From Candidatus Omnitrophota bacterium (GTDB lineage: Bacteria; Omnitrophota; Gorgyraeia; Duberdicusellales; 4484-171): 64,000 nucleotides of DNA. The notes beneath the pieces were generated by a model. It was not told the DNA's origin. It worked only from the letters and a program-made list of their open reading frames with translations, and did no database searches. Each line of letters begins with the position of its first letter. The first letter of the stretch is position 1. The position numbers and the translations under genes were made by a program. Shown here one piece after another: positions 10,043 to 64,000 of this stretch. The stretch lies in contig PMCS01000009.1 in NCBI GenBank assembly GCA_003154195.1, forward strand, positions 19,014-83,013. The letters run 5' to 3'.

Positions 10043-10720
10043 ATGGAAAGACATGTCGACCAGGAACTAAAAGAACTGAATAAAGATATCTTAAAGATGG
10101 GCGCTTTAGCAGAGGAAGCCATCTACAAATCCATCGAAGCGTTGAAGAACAGGGACAGGGAAATGGCCGGGAGTGTCATAGAGAATGATTCCAATATTGA
10201 TAAATTGGAATTAGCCATAGATGAAAAGTGTATTGATTTGATAGCGCTCTACCAACCTATGGCCAAGGACCTCCGTTTTATTACAACCGGCATGAAAATA
10301 AATAGTGAATTGGAAAGGATAGCGGATATTGCAGTAGATATTGCGCAACGTACGCTTGAAATAGTAGACAAACCCCTTTTAAAGCCGCTGATTGATATAC
10401 CTAAGTTAACCGCTATTGCGCAAAACATGGTAAAGATGTCCATCGATGCGTTTGTCAAGGGCGATATTGCCTTAGCGAAAAAAGTTTTATTATCTGATTC
10501 CGAAGCTGATCAGCTTCGGAATGTTATACAAAAAGAGCTTATTGAAGATTATATGGTTAAAGACGCAGCTACTGCGCCAAGGGCTGTCCAGCTGTTGTTG
10601 ATCGCTCGTTTTTTAGAGCGCATATGCGATCATGCGACGAATATCGCAGAAGACGTGATTTACATGGTTCAGGCAGAAGTTGTGAGGCATCACCCCGAGA
10701 AATTAAAGAATGGAAAATAA
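10043..10720 (+). CDS. phoU: PhoU (operon 2)
   Basis: Two PhoU repeats; RBS aaggagg before ATG 10043. Confidence 0.85.
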   Translation: MERHVDQELKELNKDILKMGALAEEAIYKSIEALKNRDREMAGSVIENDSNIDKLELAIDEKCIDLIALYQPMAKDLRFITTGMKINSELERIADIAVDIAQRTLEIVDKPLLKPLIDIPKLTAIAQNMVKMSIDAFVKGDIALAKKVLLSDSEADQLRNVIQKELIEDYMVKDAATAPRAVQLLLIARFLERICDHATNIAEDVIYMVQAEVVRHHPEKLKNGK

Positions 10721-50563: not shown

Positions 50564-53410
50564 TTAAATACCGCAGGCGCTTTTAAAGGAGCAGTAGGAA
50601 CAGCGTTGTTCATCAGGAACAGCCACAAAATCCACTTCCGGATTGATAATCTCCTCGAAAATAAAATCCAGCGCCCGCAGGCACACCGTCATCACTTCTT
50701 CCCGCTGTTTCGCTTCCGCGGGACGGATAAAAGGAAGCAGGTCCAGGGTGCGGATATTGTAAAGCTGAGCGTTGACCTGTTTTCCGGGAAATTGGCGGGA
50801 AATAAAATAGTAATAAATCGGCAGTTGGAACGACTTCATACTCTCGCTGATATTTTGCCGGGTCAGCTCCATTTTGGAAAGCCCGGAAAGGCTCTTGGGT
50901 TGGACGTCGCTGGAACCGGTCTTATAATCGATGATAACAATCGAATCGTCGCGCAATTCATCGACCCGGTCGGCGGTATAGCCGAAAGTAACCTCGTGTT
51001 TGCTCAGTTTCATCACCCCTTCGATTCGCTCTTCCAGGGCAAGGATCTTCTTAACATCGCGCCGCTTCTCTTCTTCCAGGAATTTGCGCATCCGGTCCTG
51101 CAAGATCCCCCACAACAAAAACGAATCGGATTTCATCCTCCGCTTGATCGTCTCGTTAAAGCGCTTTTCCATCACGTTAAAAAAATAGCGGGAGAATTCT
51201 TCATCGATTATCGGTTGAACTCCTTTGAACTTACCGAGGGTTTCTTCCAGCAATTCGTGAATAAAAGTGCCGATACTATCAGCCCGCGGGTCATCAAGCA
51301 GCCCCCGCTTTTCTTTCAGCCCCAGGCAATAAGTATAATAAAATTTCAACGGGCAGGATAAATAAACATTCAGGCGGCTGGCGGAATAACGGTCGGCCAA
51401 TAACCGCGCAACCATCTCCGGGGTTTTCTTCGCGGTATTTTGCGGCAAACTCGGCGCCAGGTTAAACGCCGCGCGCTGCGGCTCCAGCACATCGAGCCGT
51501 CCCGTTTCCTTCTGTCTCTGCCAGATCAACTCTTCGACAAAACGGCTCTTTTCTTTCTCTTTGGTCTCCTCATAAATCAAATGGACGCGTTTAGCGCCGT
51601 TGATCAGGCGCATAAACTGGTAGCGCTGGATTTCCTCTTCTTTTTCCAGGCGGTTTATCCCCAACTGCAGCATCACTTCCCGCGGGATCAGCGGCTCGTA
51701 AATCTTAAGCCGGGGCATTACCGATTCATTTAAATCCAAAGCAATCACATTATCGAAATTAAGCGAACGGGTCTCAAACAACCCTAAAATCTGCAGCCCT
51801 TTAAGCGGTGAACCGGAAAACGATAAGAGTTCGCTCTTTATCTTCTGCAAAAAAATCAGCCACAGTTCTTCGGGATTAAACTTTTCATGCTTAAAACTTA
51901 ATTCCGCCAGCTCGTCCTTAACGTTAAAGAGTTTTTCCAACGCCTTAATATTAAACGGGTAATTGCCGATATAACTTTTCCGGCTCAGCGTGTCTAAAAG
52001 CGCTTCCAGCACTCGGCTAAATCCGGCAAAATCATTTGTCGCTTCCCAGCCGCGCAACACCGTATCGTGGACATATTTTAAAATCGCCCGGCAATCATCA
52101 AGGCTGACCTTGATCTCGCCGGCCTTTAAAATCTCCAGGGCCCCGCGGTAGATCACCGTTTCCTTCTCAATTGCTTCTAAATCAATGAATAAAGTTCCGC
52201 CGATATCCGATTCGATTTCACCGTCCAACGCCTCTTCCAATTTGTGGACGAGCACCCGCGTCGCCTCATGGCCAAACCCGGCGTCGATATTTTTGATCAA
52301 GGGATGGCGCATCACCTGCAGATAATCCCGCGCGTAGTATTTATCCCCCTTCTTACTCTCCACCGCCCGCACCAGATATTCGAACAAACTGCACACCACA
52401 CTGCGCTTTAACGGATAGCCCATCGATACATTAAACTCATCGACATTGGAAGAAATCTCCGACAACAACGGCACTACTGCTTCCGGTTGGGGCAGTAAGA
52501 TAAGGGTCTTCTCTTTATCGCTGATGGTGTTTATGATATCGCGGCAGATGCAGACCTGGGAGTGAAGGTCAAAGCCTTCATGCAAAGAAAGATTAACTTT
52601 GACGCTTTGACGCTTTGACGCGCTTAATGCGCCGGGAACAATTGAGGAGCCGAATAACTTGGCATTGTGGGCTAAAACTGGCCATTCGGCTTCGTCGCCC
52701 TGGAAAATACAGCTCCCCTTTCTCGAATCGAGCACGGCTTTAATAATCGCGCCCTCGGTGGCGTGGAGATAAAAAAAGTTACAGAACAATACCGCGTCGA
52801 AGTCATCTAAATTATTCCCGGCGGCCAGAGCGCCGGCCGCTGAATAACGCTTGCCGCGCGCCATCACGCCCTGCTTAGCCAATTCCTCATGATAAAGCTT
52901 GCGCAACACTCCCATCGACTCAAGAAGCTTATTAATACTCTCCGGAACATCAAACCCGATTTGCGCGCTGGCCTTGATCGAAAGTAACTTCTCATCGGGA
53001 ATTCCTTCCAAATCAAGCTGTTCGATGAACGAAACCACTTCCCGCGCCCAGGGCAAGAATTCATTAAAGCTTTTCTTCTCCTTTAACACCCCGGATGCGT
53101 TCTTCTTCGCCAATTTATACAAAATATAACCGGCATCTAAATCGGATATCCCGGCCAGCGGTTTCCCCTGCCCGACCAACCAATCGACAAAATCATCCAT
53201 GGAAAAAACCTTAGGCGGGACGAAACTGGTGCCGATTCGATTAGCGAGTGCTTTGCGCAAAAACAAGCCGGGACGTTTGCCGCCAAAGACACAGGCGACG
53301 CGGGAATAGTCGGTGGTCTTGCCGAAGCGGTCGAGAATGATATCCGCCAACCGCTCAATAAAATTCTCGCCGAAAGATAGGGTTATCGATTTAATATTAT
53401 TTGCGCCCAT
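50564..53410 (-). CDS. AddB-like PD-(D/E)xK nuclease-family protein with C-terminal Fe-S cysteine cluster; ORF is open to 53446
   Basis: C-terminal …IIDYKTG… nuclease motif and CSYCSFKSACG cysteines; 950-aa size typical of AddB/RexB-type subunits. Confidence 0.65.
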   Translation of the reverse strand: MGANNIKSITLSFGENFIERLADIILDRFGKTTDYSRVACVFGGKRPGLFLRKALANRIGTSFVPPKVFSMDDFVDWLVGQGKPLAGISDLDAGYILYKLAKKNASGVLKEKKSFNEFLPWAREVVSFIEQLDLEGIPDEKLLSIKASAQIGFDVPESINKLLESMGVLRKLYHEELAKQGVMARGKRYSAAGALAAGNNLDDFDAVLFCNFFYLHATEGAIIKAVLDSRKGSCIFQGDEAEWPVLAHNAKLFGSSIVPGALSASKRQSVKVNLSLHEGFDLHSQVCICRDIINTISDKEKTLILLPQPEAVVPLLSEISSNVDEFNVSMGYPLKRSVVCSLFEYLVRAVESKKGDKYYARDYLQVMRHPLIKNIDAGFGHEATRVLVHKLEEALDGEIESDIGGTLFIDLEAIEKETVIYRGALEILKAGEIKVSLDDCRAILKYVHDTVLRGWEATNDFAGFSRVLEALLDTLSRKSYIGNYPFNIKALEKLFNVKDELAELSFKHEKFNPEELWLIFLQKIKSELLSFSGSPLKGLQILGLFETRSLNFDNVIALDLNESVMPRLKIYEPLIPREVMLQLGINRLEKEEEIQRYQFMRLINGAKRVHLIYEETKEKEKSRFVEELIWQRQKETGRLDVLEPQRAAFNLAPSLPQNTAKKTPEMVARLLADRYSASRLNVYLSCPLKFYYTYCLGLKEKRGLLDDPRADSIGTFIHELLEETLGKFKGVQPIIDEEFSRYFFNVMEKRFNETIKRRMKSDSFLLWGILQDRMRKFLEEEKRRDVKKILALEERIEGVMKLSKHEVTFGYTADRVDELRDDSIVIIDYKTGSSDVQPKSLSGLSKMELTRQNISESMKSFQLPIYYYFISRQFPGKQVNAQLYNIRTLDLLPFIRPAEAKQREEVMTVCLRALDFIFEEIINPEVDFVAVPDEQRCSYCSFKSACGI

Positions 53411-53415
53411 ATAAT

Positions 53416-54000
53416 TCAATAAAATTGTCCTGTAGGGGCCGGGCATGCCCGGCCCGTTAATATCATGTCTGGTTCGCGATTCGGTGATTTAAGATTTATT
53501 ATGTTTTCATTATCATCAGCCCATTTTGCAGGGTTATTAATTATGTATTCACGTATATTTTTTAATGATTCTTCCGTACGTATATGATGGTCATAGAAAA
53601 AACGCTGCCATTTAAATGAATTATTATTCAATTTATTAATTTGCCGCGAAACGGCTGACTTGAACGACCCGATTATAACCGATAAATTGTTATTTTTTTT
53701 ATTTTGATTAACGGGACGGGCATGCCCGTCCCCTACAGGACTATTGATTATTATTATCCCATGTATATGGTTCGGCATAACGATATATTCATCTAACTCA
53801 ACGTTGGGACAATGGCACGCAATCTCTTGCCAGGCTTTCCTGACGATTACTCCATATTCGTTTAAAACCATGCAATCACCTTTAATCTGGCCGAATAATT
53901 CTTTGTGATTATACGTACAAATCGTCACATAATAATACCCTGCCTTGGAATAATCATATCCTTTTAATCTGATTGCTTTTCGTTTCGGAAATTCTTGCAT
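53416..54000 (-). CDS. REP-associated tyrosine transposase (RAYT), copy 2
   Basis: KRKAIRLKGYDYSKAGYYYVTICT…, HUH MPNHIHGII, catalytic Tyr IREYIINNPAKW. Confidence 0.8.
   Translation of the reverse strand: MQEFPKRKAIRLKGYDYSKAGYYYVTICTYNHKELFGQIKGDCMVLNEYGVIVRKAWQEIACHCPNVELDEYIVMPNHIHGIIIINSPVGDGHARPVNQNKKNNNLSVIIGSFKSAVSRQINKLNNNSFKWQRFFYDHHIRTEESLKNIREYIINNPAKWADDNENIINLKSPNREPDMILTGRACPAPTGQFY
53429..53460 (+). repeat. Perfect 20-bp GC palindrome GGGCCGGGCATGCCCGGCCC (with cctgtag… flank) inside the RAYT2 3' coding region
   Basis: Seen in the sequence; self-complementary. Confidence 0.65.
53708..53739 (+). repeat. Second perfect 20-bp GC palindrome GGGACGGGCATGCCCGTCCC (inverted partner of 53429-53460) inside the RAYT2 coding region
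   Basis: Seen in the sequence; encodes an SPVGDGHARPVNQ insertion between the HUH and Tyr motifs. Confidence 0.65.
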
Positions 54001-54151
54001 TTTATTGCGTAAATTTTAGCCACGAATCACGGTGCGAAGCGAAGCGTAGCCTCCCCTTAGAGACGAATTACGCAAATGGGATATTTTTCCCGCAAAGGCG
54101 CCCGCCTAGCCAAGCAAGGCAAGGCTGGCAAAGAACGCAAAGAAAAAAATC

Positions 54152-54166
54152 ATGGTAGCTGTCCCC
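54152..54166 (+). repeat. REP-like motif atggtagctgtcccc (= GGGGACAGCTACCAT on the RAYT2 coding strand) 150 bp upstream of RAYT2
   Basis: Same 15-mer as the RAYT1-associated repeats. Confidence 0.55.
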
Positions 54167-54210
54167 GAAATTTCCTCTGTGGTAAATATTTTTATCTTAT
54201 TCGCGAGATT

Positions 54211-54300
54211 TGTGTTATTCGTTGTTAAAATCTTTCCCCGCTTTTTCTTTCTTAATCTGTGAAAATCTGCGTAATCTGTGGACAAAATTTTTTGTTTTCT
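54211..54300 (+). repeat. ~90-bp conserved intergenic element with triple ATCTG core (aatctgtgaaaatctgcgtaatctgtggac) followed by an A/T tract; copy A
   Basis: Copies at 55081-55160, 58307-58394, partial at 45665-45730. Confidence 0.5.
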
Positions 54301-54387
54301 CCCGTATTTTATCTTTTCAATTATGCGCGGATAGAATTAATACAAGCCCAGAGATAAGACAAACGAACACTTACGGCAACGGTGGGG

Positions 54388-54804
54388 TTATTTTAACTTT
54401 TTATTTTTTGTTTCTAAAGAAAAAACGAGTTTGGGATAATCGATAGTAAGGATGAAGCTGCTCAAAAAGCTTTTTACGCCAAGCAGCGGCACATGAAGGT
54501 TGGGCATGAAATCTATCAAAATATTATTAATTTCGAAATCATCAATCTTGACACAAACCGTATGGGAATAGGCAAGAGTTTTGCCGTTACCGGTATTAAT
54601 TTCTTTAGCAAAACCGGACTGTAAATCATGCCCTAAAATCGGAGCATACAAAGCCGGTAAGGCGCACTCATCGGCTCCGGTATCGATCAGGCCGTAAGCT
54701 TTAACGCTTTTGCCGGTATGAGGATTTTTAATAATTATCGCCAGCCATGGACGCGGGGTATCTTGAGGAGAGAATTTGGAGAAAGGTAAATTTCTTAAAT
54801 TCAT
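54388..54804 (-). CDS. Retropepsin-like (clan AA) aspartic protease
   Basis: LIDTGADECALP active-site motif. Confidence 0.7.
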   Translation of the reverse strand: MNLRNLPFSKFSPQDTPRPWLAIIIKNPHTGKSVKAYGLIDTGADECALPALYAPILGHDLQSGFAKEINTGNGKTLAYSHTVCVKIDDFEINNILIDFMPNLHVPLLGVKSFLSSFILTIDYPKLVFSLETKNKKLK

Positions 54805-54992
54805 TAGTAAATTTGAACCACATCATTTAAAGGGACAAAAATCACAACCGGTTCTTTACAGCCTTTATGCAAAGCTTTTTCGTAAGCTTCCTGGGGCGTA
54901 TCGCCGTCGCCGACAACGGTATTTTTCCCAAAATCTTTTATCGCGACATACCTGCCCCTGTATTTTTTATCTTTTATCAATACCTGCGTCAT
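54804..54992 (-). CDS. Small DUF5678-like protein (62 aa); start/stop-overlapping partner of the aspartic protease gene
   Basis: …YRGRYVAIKDFGKNTVVGDGDTPQEAYEKALHKGCKEPVVIFVP… pattern. Confidence 0.45.
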   Translation of the reverse strand: MTQVLIKDKKYRGRYVAIKDFGKNTVVGDGDTPQEAYEKALHKGCKEPVVIFVPLNDVVQIY

Positions 54993-55080
54993 ATATTTTC
55001 TTCTTTTTTTAAGATGGTAATTATACCGTGATGCTAAAATTCTAAAGGCTATGGCATTTTTGTCAATGAATATTTACCCC

Positions 55081-55160
55081 ATAATTCTCCTTCATCCTTC
55101 TTGCTTTACTCTGTGAAAATCTGTGTAATCTGTGGACAAATTTTTTTCGTTTTATCTATC
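55081..55160 (+). repeat. ~90-bp ATCTG element, copy B (ctctgtgaaaatctgtgtaatctgtggac)
   Basis: See 54211. Confidence 0.5.
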
Positions 55161-55161
55161 T

Positions 55162-55968
55162 TTACAAATCAGCCCTGTACTTCGCAATCAACGACGGAAC
55201 GACCGTATCGGCGTTAGCAATCAAATCGGCCTGGGCGTCTTCGAATAAAAACGGACGCAATTCTTCCGCCTGCTTTTTTAATTCCGCCGGCGAAAAGCTC
55301 TTAACTCTTTTAGCAATAACCTCCAGCGGGTTTTCCTTGATCCCCAACGAAGCCAGGACTTTCCGGTTAATCGGATAATTTTGGGAAAGCATAAAAATTA
55401 TATCGTACAGGTGCCGCGCCCGCGTTTTTTTAACCAGGGCGTCGATTTTATCGGCAAACAGCGCGCTCTTGTCGGTGCAGCCGCAGGTAAAAATCTCCCC
55501 AAAGCCGTTGATTACTTCGCTTTCCCTGACGATTTTCCATTTGGGCGTATTCGTCTCAATTTTAATGACAATCCCGGCTTTCTTCGAATACGCCGATTTA
55601 ACATTATACGCTTTTTCGATTTCCGGAAAGATTAAATTCCCCGCGAAAATATTACGCCAATGCTTAAAATTAACATCGGCAATAATGTTAGAACGGGCCA
55701 GCTCGGTTTTTACCTTATCCAGCAAGGTTTCAAACTGCCCCCCGGAAAGCTCATCGCAGTTAAAATCAAGGTCTTCAGAAAACCGTTTTAGATTATGCAC
55801 CAGCCGCAGGTATGTCCCGCCGGTAAAATACAGATGCTTACCGGTATCGGCCTTATAAATCTCTTTTAAAATCAATACCTGCAAATATTCGCGCAATACC
55901 CCGCGCATCTTATTACCCGGCATGCCCCGCAGTTTTGCCTGTTCGGTTAAACTCTCATAGGTCAGCAT
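55162..55968 (-). CDS. AbiEii/AbiGii-family nucleotidyltransferase toxin
   Basis: …REYLQVLILKEI…LYFTGGTYLRLVHNLKRFSEDLDF… family signature. Confidence 0.75.
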   Translation of the reverse strand: MLTYESLTEQAKLRGMPGNKMRGVLREYLQVLILKEIYKADTGKHLYFTGGTYLRLVHNLKRFSEDLDFNCDELSGGQFETLLDKVKTELARSNIIADVNFKHWRNIFAGNLIFPEIEKAYNVKSAYSKKAGIVIKIETNTPKWKIVRESEVINGFGEIFTCGCTDKSALFADKIDALVKKTRARHLYDIIFMLSQNYPINRKVLASLGIKENPLEVIAKRVKSFSPAELKKQAEELRPFLFEDAQADLIANADTVVPSLIAKYRADL

Positions 55969-56569
55969 AAATCACCTCTTCTACGTCGATATTATACTGC
56001 TTAGCGTATTTTTCCAGTTTCTTCTTATTCATCCCCGCGATAATGTTTTTATCCATCCGCTCTTCGCCTAAGATTGCCCGCTTCTTCCCGCGAAAGGTTT
56101 TAAAATGGACAAAATCGATTAAAGCCTTTTCCGGTTCGGCAATCAGGACATCGAAATCTCCCTGCCGTTCCACATAATAACCGCCAAACGCCTCTTTTTT
56201 TATCGTCCGGTAAATAAATAACCCGTGCAGGTTCCTGAATTTACGGGTAGGCTTGGTAGTAATCGAAGTCACCGCCATCGATACTTCCGGAATAACGCTG
56301 TAATGGGATAAAGCCGTCTCCAGGGAAACATACGACGGCGCGTATAAGCGGTTGGCAATATGCATATCGGAAATAGCATATTCCTCAGGATAAATCAATT
56401 CATAAAAATCTCGCTTCAATGCCCGGATAAACCCCTTTCCTTTCCAGCGATAAAGCAGTTTTTTAAGGCTCTCTTTTTTCTCCCGCGGGTAAAAAGAAAG
56501 CACATCCTCGCTGGTGAAAAGATAGTATTTTTTTCCCGATAATGTTTTATAAAATTCTTCGAATTTCAT
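55955..56569 (-). CDS. AbiEi-family antitoxin / transcriptional regulator
   Basis: Sits directly upstream of and overlaps AbiEii; AbiEi-like sequence. Confidence 0.65.
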   Translation of the reverse strand: MKFEEFYKTLSGKKYYLFTSEDVLSFYPREKKESLKKLLYRWKGKGFIRALKRDFYELIYPEEYAISDMHIANRLYAPSYVSLETALSHYSVIPEVSMAVTSITTKPTRKFRNLHGLFIYRTIKKEAFGGYYVERQGDFDVLIAEPEKALIDFVHFKTFRGKKRAILGEERMDKNIIAGMNKKKLEKYAKQYNIDVEEVIYADL

Positions 56570-63619: not shown

Positions 63620-64000
63620 AAATATTATAAGGGAAATAAGCTAATTAGCCATTATTTTTTGTTAATCACCTGCATGCGAACGGACGCTCGTGCCAGTCCC
63701 GCCATAGGCGGGGAATGAATTGTTTCCCGCTTCGCCTTCGGCTTCGCGGGACTCGCTATATGTTTGTATAAAGATGAATCGCGCGCGCAAAGGGCGGTCA
63801 ACGGCCATTCGCCTGTGAGACTTACCCCTTAAGAAGAGTTGAGGGAACAATCCGTTCGCGAGAGCGGAAGCCCAACTTCGCGTTCGCGCCGATGTCTCAT
63901 CGGCGCGAACACCTGAACCAGCCGCCCCGCCCCGGTCGGCTTAAGCGACGCGGCAAATTATTCTATAGCCTCCCGAACGGCAGGATCGTAAACCTTCAAG
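63620..64000 (+). other. GC-rich (~58%) structured non-coding region at the window edge; candidate ncRNA or regulatory RNA (truncated by the window end)
   Basis: Perfect hairpins cccgcc-atag-gcggg and gttcgcgccgatg-tctc-atcggcgcgaac; no long ORF. Confidence 0.3.

Follow-up and report, generated by a model that had tools for sequence, protein, structure and literature searches.

The Omnitrophota gene RAYT2, which lies in the 64-kb stretch of DNA analysed here (the window), contains two perfect 20-bp palindromes that are translated in frame, one in the interior of the transposase-like protein and one at its C terminus. The locus raises the question of whether REP hairpins inside the gene of their presumed enzyme are recent arrivals, inert passengers or sites on which the enzyme acts. 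The original prediction was that REP-type hairpins had inserted into RAYT2 itself without disturbing its reading frame or, alternatively, that the gene is an inactivated pseudo-RAYT.

Two opposed REP hairpins in the RAYT2 gene

The palindromes, GGGCCGGGCATGCCCGGCCC at 53436-53455 and GGGACGGGCATGCCCGTCCC at 53713-53732, were located exactly as predicted, and their start-to-start spacing of 277 nt agrees with the estimate of about 275 bp. Their GC contents are 90% and 80%, higher than the 75% originally given; the AT-rich background that had been ascribed to the genome is found in the RAYT gene and its surroundings (30-40% GC) and not in the window (45%). The palindromes form the cores of an inverted repeat whose 39-nt arms, the MID and TAIL units of Table 1, are 92% complementary and enclose 245 nt. 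The two copies are mutually inverted, as had been noted, and this inversion is defined by the flanks of the palindromes. The cores differ by C/A and G/T exchanges that are compensatory, each copy still being a perfect palindrome.

Table 1. Positions of RAYT2, its motifs, its REP units and the adjacent gene in the window
Feature	Position	Strand	Details
RAYT2, HUH/Y1 transposase ORF	53416..54000	-	194 aa; REP-associated-tyrosine-transposase-like, subclass 2.4-like; stop TGA 53416-53418
HUH motif codons H78-I79-H80	53761..53769	-	H78 and H80 near-invariant in alignment A1; match HmH of E. coli TnpA_REP
Internal REP unit (MID)	53707..53745	-	top strand = gene sense: AATAGTCCT-GTAG-GGGACGGGCATGCCCGTCCC-GTTAAT; encodes residues 86-98
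W131-Q132 codons (WQR motif)	53605..53610	-	invariant in A1; equivalent to W94-Q95 of 4ER8
Catalytic Tyr codon Y152, motif YIINNP	53545..53547	-	Y152 and N156 invariant in A1; equivalent to Y115 and N119 of 4ER8
3' REP unit (TAIL)	53423..53461	+	antisense to gene: AATTGTCCT-GTAG-GGGCCGGGCATGCCCGGCCC-GTTAAT; gene strand encodes residues 180-194
AddB-like PD-(D/E)XK nuclease gene	50564..53446	-	downstream neighbour, not part of the element; Pfam PDDEXK_1 E 2e-28

Both units consist of a CT dinucleotide, a GTAG head, a GGG...CCC stem with three G-C pairs at its foot, and a GTTAAT 3' tail, and their calculated DNA hairpin energies are -9.6 kcal/mol (MID) and -10.9 kcal/mol (TAIL). MID and TAIL are GTAG-headed REP hairpins on opposite strands, one of them internal rather than upstream; RAYT2 has no upstream REP, which is present in 44% of its homologs. 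In frame, MID encodes NSPVGDGHARPVN and the gene strand of TAIL encodes ILTGRACPAPTGQFY, the C terminus of the protein, in agreement with the earlier reading. The presence of REP-type hairpins in frame within a RAYT gene is upheld by this anatomy, by the RAYT-like Y1 enzyme that the gene encodes and by the publication of the same arrangement for the subfamily. The ATG of the longest AddB-like ORF (53444-53446) falls in the centre of the 3' palindrome, and the next ATG (53408-53410) lies 5 nt past the RAYT stop; the proposed overlap of the palindrome with the start of this gene exists if the first ATG is used and disappears if the second is. Gene callers differ on the length of the AddB-like protein across other assemblies (960 or 948 aa).

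The RAYT2 ORF runs without interruption and scores 24.2 bits against Pfam Y1_Tnp (PF01797; cut-off 23). Its sole NCBIfam match is REP_Tyr_transpos (NF047646; E 2e-17), for which its 63.4 bits fall short of the equivalog cut-off of 80 bits; by this profile score, RAYT2 is related to the proteobacterial-type RAYTs on which the model is based but is not an equivalog. The only PDB sequence match is 4ER8, E. coli TnpA_REP, with the HUH, WQ, Y and N positions aligned. In a Foldseek comparison of the predicted RAYT2 structure, 4ER8 is again the best match and the top 30 matches are all Y1 transposases. As judged from the alignment and the model together, RAYT2 is closer to TnpA_REP than to the IS200 transposases. 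In E. coli TnpA_REP, it is the WQR region that makes contact with the GTAG head (PMC6006769).

The core of the model is confident (pLDDT mostly >85) and places H78-I-H80 on a strand (residues 78-85) and Y152 in a helix (residues 143-154). Confidence falls below a pLDDT of 50 in residues 89-103, a disordered segment between strand 78-85 and helix 105-125, and in residues 174-194. The MID peptide forms a disordered loop that connects the HUH strand to the helix following it, and the TAIL peptide is the disordered C-terminal tail. The placement of the insert between the HUH motif and the catalytic tyrosine was correct, although the tyrosine concerned is Y152 and not the one beside the WQR motif. 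The label RAYT2 implies a RAYT1, yet a family profile HMM built from alignment A1 and run against six-frame ORFs of at least 50 aa retrieved only 53419-54015 and no second family member from the window; weak tblastn matches at 6.7 kb, 25.9 kb and 62.8 kb fall within unrelated ORFs.

Distribution, pairing and copy number of the hairpins

Searches with RAYT2 found 3640 homologs. We surveyed 159 homologous loci from many phyla, counting a hairpin as strong at a score of at least 14, and found a GC-rich hairpin in the HUH-to-WQ interval of 130 of them (82%). In the control interval, the N-terminal coding region, hairpins were present at 4/159 loci; the upstream region has one at 69/156 loci (44%) and the downstream region at 54/151 (36%). 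Of the flanking copies, 34 of the 58 upstream and 17 of the 47 downstream are at least 90% identical to the internal one, compared with 1% of random pairs, and 42 homologous loci carry the internal REP without any flanking copy. The internal REP is double-foot in 58 cases and single-foot in 69 (33 sense-only, 36 antisense-only); such inconsistent orientation across the family speaks against one fixed strand-specific role in cis. The GTAG is read in frame 0 at 73 loci and in frame 1 at 18, and at none in the frame that yields a TAG stop.

The length and sequence of the insert vary in A1. Close Omnitrophota homologs keep the insert peptide and the palindrome position, and Omnitrophota homologs likewise keep the C-terminal peptide G[QK]AC[LP][AV]PTG and its palindrome; a metagenome scan for relatives gave at most 49% identity among the matches listed. 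The 13-residue insert that had been considered potentially unique to RAYT2 is, then, shared with its close homologs. With the position kept in those homologs and a hairpin in this interval at 82% of the loci surveyed, insertion into RAYT2 itself is not upheld: the internal palindrome is, on comparative sequence evidence, an inherited feature of the family and not a recent insertion at RAYT2.

Pairing is retained as the stem changes. In a set of 61 distinct internal palindromes (A3), 98.2% of cells are paired, a percentage that arises partly by construction because A3 was chosen by hairpin score, and two-sided changes are seen at 9/9 pairs. The 19 Omnitrophota MID/TAIL units, which were taken at homologous positions, are 98.8% paired, with two-sided changes at 5/9 pairs, compared with 31-56% in slid controls. 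Stem sequence thus varies among loci with pairing retained through changes on both sides. The other parts of the unit vary in concert within a locus: L165 and L082 each have GCAG in place of GTAG as the head of both their copies, and the 3' tail differs among loci and matches within a locus. Among the rare non-Watson-Crick cells of A3, G-U accounts for 2/12, no more than chance. The chance frequency of G-U pairs, together with palindromes that are perfect on both strands, points to a constraint on the internal hairpin that would act on DNA rather than RNA.

Further copies were sought with the degenerate 20-mer CCTGTAGGGGNCNGGCATGCCNGNCCCGTTAA, allowing up to 3 mismatches, which occurs at two sites only in the 64 kb (0.01 expected from 100 shuffles, none of which gave two or more sites). 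The two REP palindromes are also the sole GC-rich perfect palindromes of at least 16 bp in the window. No dispersed REP copy was found in the 64 kb beyond the two of RAYT2; absence of the palindromes elsewhere, which the original prediction had named as evidence against itself, is thus observed within these 64 kb. Close relatives have only gene-linked REP copies in 10-20 kb of flanking sequence, with no dispersed family, and more distant homologs have REP arrays, for example L013 with 29 copies. The exact RAYT2 protein occurs on 14 contigs, with the same gene context in all six places shown, and the RAYT2 locus is 100% identical in six other assemblies. Given the lack of other copies in 64 kb and the identical locus in independent assemblies, the system looks static in its genome, with no current mobility indicated; that RAYT2 mobilises such REPs in its own genome might be supposed by homology. 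REP-bounded transposition was considered for the two copies in L001, which share 419 bp at 96% identity, and was rejected: the shared stretch begins within the gene and extends 59 nt beyond the 3' REP, its ends not coinciding with REPs.

Relation to known REP systems

The RAYT2 locus is very probably a minimal REPtron of the RAYT/TnpA_REP subfamily, belonging to TnpA_Y1 subclass 2.4 of Quentin, Siguier, Chandler & Fichant (2018, BMC Genomics 19:475). In that subclass, tnpAREP harbours REP insertions that keep the frame and lie between HuH and Y (PMC6006769), and RAYT2 shares with it the HUH/Y1 core, an in-frame REP between these motifs (53707-53745, between H80 and Y152), a variable insertion between β3 and αC, the lack of a conserved C-terminal extension domain, and long GTAG-headed REPs with three G-C pairs at the foot of the stem, as well as a scattered occurrence over phyla. 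RAYT2 departs from the published description in its host, Omnitrophota, where the description names Cyanobacteria and Bacteroidetes as abundant hosts, in lacking an upstream REP and any dispersed copy in 64 kb, and in translating its 3' REP. Subclass 2.4 has both long canonical and double-foot REPs; in a further difference, those of RAYT2 are single-foot and strictly inverted rather than double-foot. Table S1 of the 2018 study lists REP GTAGGGGCACGGCATGCCGTGCCC(C) for a subclass 2.4 REPtron, entry ACF44614.1 (PMC6006769); L016, L021, L031, L041, L085 and L100 carry exactly this sequence as their internal REP. Among the matches listed, homologs with a tblastn E of at most 1e-41 carry the same REP as ACF44614.1, which links that entry to RAYT2 indirectly. 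In-frame REPs inside subclass 2.4 tnpAREP were already reported in 2018, and RAYT2 is a new Omnitrophota example; what is added here are numbers across 159 loci and the question of the role of the embedded REP.

RAYT Group 4 of Bertels, Gallie & Rainey (2017, GBE 9:2110) is probably the same family as subclass 2.4, an equivalence drawn from taxonomy and shared members. Group 4 is described as occurring in many classes, frequently in Cyanobacteria, Chlorobia and Caldilineae and rarely in Proteobacteria, a taxonomy that fits our homolog set, and its flanking 16-mers number only about 14 per replicon (GBE 9:2110). We found no mention of intragenic REPs in the passages of that paper that we read.

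The E. coli TnpA_REP/RayT (YafM) REPtron (4ER8) resembles the RAYT2 locus in the fold and the aligned HUH, WQ, Y and N motifs of its enzyme, in REPs that have a 5' GTAG and an adjacent CT, and in the opposite orientation of REPs at the gene; in the systems studied, cleavage occurs at CT and GTAG acts as a guide (PMC8266576). The E. coli protein, however, is only ~19% identical to RAYT2, has a C-terminal domain and lacks a REP-encoded loop, and E. coli carries hundreds of dispersed REPs, which lie outside genes and are imperfect and bulged. IS200/IS605 elements share the enzyme fold, and their transposase recognises subterminal hairpins in DNA, with a guide tetranucleotide on the 5' side, but these elements are multicopy and end in two imperfect hairpins that differ from each other and lie on one strand outside tnpA. 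The hairpins of RAYT2 are near-identical and inverted, with one of them intragenic, at a single static locus, and the assignment to IS200/IS605 was rejected. So was that to a REPIN (Bertels & Rainey 2011), in which two closely spaced inverted REPs fold into one long hairpin and replicate as a dispersed population, the spacer here being 245 nt of coding sequence and the window holding no other copies. REPs that are GTAG-tagged and lie in frame in unrelated genes have been described by Di Nocera, De Gregorio & Rocco (2013, BMC Genomics 14:522; PMC3733652), who also report REPtrons in species without a REP family. Those insertions are sporadic and occur at varying sites in replication and repair genes, whereas the site in RAYT2 is fixed and the host gene is that of the presumed enzyme of the REP.

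Possible roles of the embedded hairpin

As a minimal REPtron, RAYT2 would comprise an HUH/Y1 single-strand DNA endonuclease and strand transferase together with two presumed cognate REPs in opposite orientation. The internal REP is accommodated in the loop between the HUH strand (β3) and the next helix (αC) and the second at the extreme 3' end of the gene, where the Omnitrophota clade reads through the REP before the stop codon. The frame survives in that the palindrome encodes a Gly/Ala/Pro/Arg-rich peptide, that the REP-encoded peptides fall in segments predicted to be disordered, and that only one of the three frames of GTAGGGG has a stop (TAG), a frame that none of the loci uses. [quoted passage not shown] By analogy with the biochemistry of TnpA_REP from E. 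coli, Stenotrophomonas and Marinomonas, RAYT2 would bind each hairpin as single-stranded DNA, on the strand with the 5' GTAG, and may be guided by GTAG and cut at the neighbouring CT; in the literature on subclass 2.4, we found no enzyme with biochemical characterisation. If RAYT2 does bind and cleave in this way, the internal copy would be a cis site for the enzyme and not meaningless cargo.

We put forward, as a tentative reading that is possible rather than probable, that selection maintains the intragenic REP as the core cis-site of subclass 2.4 RAYTs, so that it is no passenger, and that the enzyme has a self-directed role where dispersed REPs seem absent. Within the REPtron, no other REP is as well conserved as the internal copy, which 82% of loci keep, compared with 36-44% for flanking copies.

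A passive origin is also conceivable, if doubtful: a REP that inserted once in a tolerant loop of an ancestral RAYT could be functionless and survive there for no other reason than that an imprecise loss would destroy the ORF, with the 3' copy no more than a flanking REP into which the ORF extends. The peptides that the hairpins encode are disordered and peripheral, stop avoidance alone accounts for the frame rule, and in-frame REPs occur in unrelated genes too (PMC3733652). The 2018 authors held this view, describing the insert as peripheral and of little impact on activity (PMC6006769). Since the peptide of the loop is unconstrained, however, a neutral trapped palindrome should decay, and pairing stays at ~98% despite the turnover of the stem. 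The internal copy is retained more often than either flanking copy (82% compared with 44% and 36%), and in Omnitrophota MID and TAIL have diverged from each other with each remaining a near-perfect palindrome, with no dispersed donors nearby for conversion.

Regulation at the level of RNA appears unlikely. Hairpins in the mRNA, or a long-range duplex of ~37 bp around the 3' half of the ORF, could keep the nuclease low by limiting translation or by marking the transcript for RNase III-type cleavage, and the 3' hairpin might stabilise the end of the transcript in the manner of classical REPs. The minimum free energy fold of a 371-nt segment of the transcript does pair both arms (-105 kcal/mol, compared with -76 +/- 5 for shuffles; z -5.6), and down-regulation of RAYTs by REP hairpins was proposed by Di Nocera et al. 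(PMC3733652). The perfect two-strand palindromes and the chance level of G-U (2/12 in A3) point instead to DNA, and the 42 homologous loci with an internal copy only have no partner for a long-range duplex. Neither hairpin matches the pattern of an intrinsic terminator, for which regional sites are at or below shuffle expectation, and Rfam gave no match at the gathering score in the whole window and none at E <=1 in 53300-54500.

It is most improbable that the 39-nt repeats serve as an intragenic inverton, flipping the 245-bp segment between a full-length RAYT and a form of ~140 aa that lacks the catalytic tyrosine. The 92% complementary inverted repeat around 245 bp would suit such a device, and the frame after inversion would be open for 42 codons, as read from the + strand ORF 53465-53587; the repeat, however, is fully explained by two opposed REPs in the standard REPtron layout, and a single orientation is found in the six other assemblies, 100% identical. 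Short homologs (P0117, P0069, P0074, P0055, P0065, P0059 and P0064), considered as inverted forms, proved to be fragments at contig ends.

There is very little likelihood that RAYT2 is an inactivated pseudo-RAYT, as the original prediction allowed, for although its Pfam score is barely above the gathering cut-off, a low value that reflects the insert and the distance from IS200, and one related contig (L081) has a mutated HUH motif, the catalytic and GTAG-contact residues (H78/H80, W131-Q132, Y152 and N156) are intact and invariant or nearly so, the ORF is uninterrupted, the model core is confident and the identical sequence was recovered in six assemblies. DGR-like mutagenesis was considered for the substitution cluster of L081 (53730-53779) and rejected, the changes hitting all four bases.

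Should the intragenic REP be a maintained cis-site, then in genomes seemingly without dispersed REPs, such as that of this Omnitrophota bacterium, the enzyme would have no substrates other than the hairpin pair of its own gene. The enzyme would have no genome-wide role in REP maintenance, and might instead regulate itself by binding or nicking its own gene in single-stranded form, or the embedded hairpin might be a protected "master copy" that seeds REPs. In the Omnitrophota clade, the gene and its two hairpins appear to be the whole system, which makes it a compact and tractable experimental case.

Two REP-like palindromes within RAYT2

The coding sequence of RAYT2, a 194-residue HUH/Y1 REP-associated tyrosine transposase-like protein, reads across two perfect 20-bp palindromes, which the window sequence confirms at the predicted positions. 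Their GC content had been put at about 75% in an AT-rich genome; the computed values are 90% and 80%, and GC content across the whole window is 45%, with only the RAYT gene region being AT-rich. Only these two sites in the 64 kb match the degenerate 20-mer pattern with three mismatches allowed (shuffle expectation 0.01), and the window holds no other GC-rich perfect palindrome of at least 16 bp. The cores lie within a 39-nt inverted repeat, the arms of which are 92% complementary and separated by 245 nt. The cores differ at two positions (C..G vs A..T) that pair with each other, so both copies stay perfect palindromes.

On the head-bearing strand, both units follow the layout AAT(A/T)GTCCT-GTAG-GGG(A/C)CGGGCATGCCCG(T/G)CCC-GTTAAT, which comprises a CT dinucleotide, a GTAG tetranucleotide, a stem opening with three G-C pairs, a short CATG centre and a common 3' tail; the predicted DNA hairpin energy is about -10 kcal/mol for each. 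The internal unit carries its head on the RAYT2 sense strand, the 3' unit on the antisense strand. REPs are characteristically marked by GTAG at their 5' foot (PMC3733652; PMC6006769), and both palindromes can be assigned as REPs from their sequence. In studied TnpA_REP systems, the single-stranded hairpin is bound with GTAG as the guide and cleaved at an adjoining CT or CA (PMC8266576); by analogy, RAYT2 would bind and cleave its REPs.

Features of the RAYT2 locus and of homologous loci (window positions unless a homolog locus, L, is named)
Feature	Position	Description
RAYT2	53416-54000 (-)	194-aa ORF
Internal palindrome	53713-53732	20-bp core
Internal REP unit	53707-53745	residues 86-98 = NSPVGDGHARPVN
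3' palindrome	53436-53455	20-bp core
3' REP unit	53423-53461	residues 180-194 = ILTGRACPAPTGQFY, then stop
AddB-like nuclease gene	50564-53446 (-)	downstream of RAYT2
AddB-like candidate starts	53408-53446	two ATGs; the first 12 codons from start 1 are REP sequence
RAYT2 upstream interval	54001-54390	about 390 nt
First part of upstream interval	54001-54280	280 nt
Toxin-antitoxin/defence-like islet	54388-56569	includes DUF5678 and retropepsin-like protein
AbiEii	55162-55968	adjoining 204-aa partner ORF
L081 substitution cluster	53730-53779	18 substitutions within 50 nt
Unrelated palindrome	10497-10522	26 bp, perfect, ATTCCGAAGCTGATCAGCTTCGGAAT; unrelated to REP
Unrelated hairpin	63882-63910	13-bp stem, GTTCGCGCCGATGTCTCATCGGCGCGAAC; unrelated to REP
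L081 homolog	L081:2066-2746	encodes protein P0001
L163 homolog	L163:8121-8702	61% identical, both hairpins
L001 full copy	L001:1748-2166	419-bp shared stretch
L001 second copy	L001:9154-9572	5'-truncated
L002 partial duplicate	L002:1020-1075	after internal REP
ParE-like gene	L169:6457-6585	past AddB-like gene in identical contigs

The RAYT2 protein

The Pfam Y1_Tnp match of RAYT2 barely exceeds the gathering score, and its sole NCBIfam match, 'REP-associated tyrosine transposase', scores under the equivalog cut-off. Among solved structures, the family profile matches only E. coli TnpA_REP (4ER8); in the profile alignment, H78/H80 fall on the HUH motif, W131-Q132 correspond to W94-Q95, Y152 to the catalytic Y115 and N156 to N119. 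The alternative that RAYT2 is an inactivated pseudogene is unsupported, since these motifs are all intact, align to 4ER8 and vary hardly or not at all across homologs. In the AlphaFold model, for which 41 homologs were supplied, the core is of high confidence; Foldseek ranks 4ER8 as the best hit to the model, followed by the IS608, ISDra2 and IS200 transposases. The palindrome-encoded peptides fall in two low-confidence stretches of the model: residues 89-103, a loop joining the HUH strand (78-85) to the next helix (105-125), and residues 174-194, a tail beyond the last helix. The name RAYT2 implies a 'RAYT1'; the family profile finds no second member among window six-frame ORFs of at least 50 aa.

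Hairpin conservation in close relatives and the wider family

RAYT2 has 3640 database relatives, the nearest named ones being from Omnitrophota MAGs. In an alignment of 41 relatives, two peptides recur, NNPVG[TDA]GHA[LR].. in the middle and G[QK]AC[LP][AV]PTG at the C terminus; their amino-acid changes look odd as protein changes and sensible as palindrome changes. In the DNA of all ten close relatives compared, GC-rich palindromes occupy both positions, the internal one with a sense-strand head and the 3' one with an antisense-strand head. The insert is thus not unique to RAYT2 but is found in all ten and in the wider family. With 19 units from close relatives aligned by their top strand, pairing holds for 98.8% of stem cells, compared with 31-56% when the partner is slid by 1-3 columns, and five of the nine stem pairs have changed on both sides. 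In L165 and in L082, the head is GCAG instead of GTAG at both copies, and the 3' tail varies among loci (GTTAA, TCTAA, GCTA) but is the same in both copies of one locus. Inner stems have diverged between the two window copies (GGGACGGGC vs GGGCCGGGC) and between those of L163 (AGGCAGGGC vs GGGCCAGGC), each still palindromic. The flanks of the close relatives show gene-linked REP copies only; this divergence within the RAYT2 clade, together with the lack of donor copies in the examined flanks, argues against upkeep by gene conversion.

The survey was widened with 160 further loci taken from matches listed in GTDB genomes and JGI metagenomes, with hosts in Chloroflexota, Cyanobacteria, Nitrosomonas, Patescibacteria, Planctomycetota, Bacteroidota and others. 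The full set, close relatives and window included, comprised 169 sequences, 159 of them with HUH, WQ and YxxNP motifs. Counting hairpins that score at least 14 in the scan, one is present between HUH and WQ in 130 of 159 loci (82%), upstream of the gene in 69 of 156 and downstream in 54 of 151; the controls give 4 of 159 for N-terminal coding sequence and 0 of 159 for the interval after WQ. The typical internal unit is GTAGGGGC-N..N-GCCCCTAC, and all nine stem positions have changed on both sides among 61 distinct internal examples; because hairpin score was the selection criterion for this set, part of its 98% pairing is built in, and the control intervals carry the argument. Flanking copies, where present, mostly resemble the internal one: 34/58 upstream and 17/47 downstream are at least 90% identical to it (random pairings, 1%). 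Some loci have big arrays, such as the 29 copies around L013. The GTAG head lies in codon phase 0 (GTA = Val, 'VGA..') at 73 loci and in phase 1 ('RG..') at 18, and among surveyed loci never in the TAG-stop phase, which offers a simple explanation of why insertions are always in frame. Nineteen of the 54 downstream hairpins begin ahead of the stop codon (12 within the last 40 nt, 7 further upstream); likewise, the 3' REP of RAYT2 is translated as part of the ORF. At L002, a partial tandem duplicate of the 3' arm (..CCTGCCTGTTCCGCTAATATACCTGCCTGTTCTGTTAAT) yields a repeated peptide, PACSANIPACSVN, which fits the 'short repeats' invoked by Quentin et al. for insert length variation in subclass 2.4.

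In classifying the TnpA_Y1 family, Quentin, Siguier, Chandler and Fichant (2018; PMC6006769) regarded the insert as a peripheral loop of small effect on activity and gave it no function. That the internal REP is a pure passenger is less likely than their paper implies, as the palindrome is kept while its sequence turns over, and is kept more often than flanking REPs. A role of the hairpins in RNA is possible: the minimum-free-energy transcript fold pairs both arms (z -5.6). Against this, G-U pairs show no enrichment (2 of 12 non-Watson-Crick cells in the 61-example set, as chance gives), neither hairpin matches a terminator pattern and there is no Rfam match. An intragenic inverton is unsupported.

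Locus, mobility and family assignment

RAYT2 has no upstream REP, and the 64-kb window has no further REP copies. The upstream interval contains no long ORF, Rfam match or REP copy, and across six independent assemblies its first 280 nt vary by one base at most; beyond it, RAYT2 adjoins a small toxin-antitoxin/defence-like islet. On the other side, the AddB-like gene may start at an ATG at the centre of the 3' palindrome (start 1, 960 aa) or at one 5 nt past the RAYT2 stop (948 aa), and gene callers choose differently on identical DNA of other assemblies.

The exact RAYT2 protein is encoded on 14 contigs, which come from different samples. The six listed share the gene context (AbiEii, DUF5678, aspartic-protease-like, RAYT2, AddB-like) and are 100% identical to the window across 1065 nt; there is no sign of present-day mobility. 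Clade members at a greater distance lie in unrelated housekeeping contexts, indicating that the gene has moved on a longer time scale. The L163 homolog, located between xseA and xseB (genes for the large and small subunits of exonuclease VII), starts 6 nt past one and ends 21 nt ahead of the other, with no upstream REP, a spacing so tight that the inserted unit was hardly more than the gene and its 3' REP. At L001, the full copy is followed 7 kb downstream by the truncated one; the two are 96% identical and include both hairpins. Their common stretch has an intragenic start and extends 59 nt beyond the 3' REP, so this duplication was not REP-bounded.

The JGI contig L081, encoding a protein 94% identical to RAYT2, is identical to the window along 1065 nt apart from one substitution cluster without frameshift, which is absent from six other assemblies. 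It replaces the HUH motif (MPNHIHG to WRLQLDK) and destroys the GTAG head and foot of the internal 5' arm (CCTGTAGGGGAC to CCTTTAAGGAAC). The cluster reflects either misassembly at the hairpin or a genuine local event that inactivated enzyme and site jointly.

The best-supported reading of the RAYT2 locus is a subclass 2.4 REPtron, that is, a RAYT gene with associated REP hairpins. Quentin et al. describe for this subclass a 'predominance' of in-frame REP insertions within tnpAREP, a variable insertion between beta3 and alphaC, no conserved C-terminal extension, and GTAG-headed REPs of canonical long or 'double foot' type (PMC6006769). The REP that their Table S1 gives for the subclass 2.4 protein ACF44614.1, GTAGGGGCACGGCATGCCGTGCCC(C), is the internal REP of six surveyed loci (L016, L021, L031, L041, L085, L100). 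Judging from its host range, which matches the RAYT2 homolog set, Group 4 of Bertels et al. 2017 is probably the same family. REPtrons also occur in species without a REP family, according to Di Nocera et al. (PMC3733652).

The original prediction of REP-type hairpins in a transposase gene was therefore essentially right, except that they do not mark a local insertion event; the feature is inherited and family-wide. An in-frame REP inside a RAYT gene was already described in 2018, and the window contributes an Omnitrophota example. In such a REPtron, the cognate single-strand DNA hairpins of the RAYT2 enzyme would sit on its own gene; their presence in frame may be tolerated since the segments they encode are disordered and the frame with the stop is avoided.
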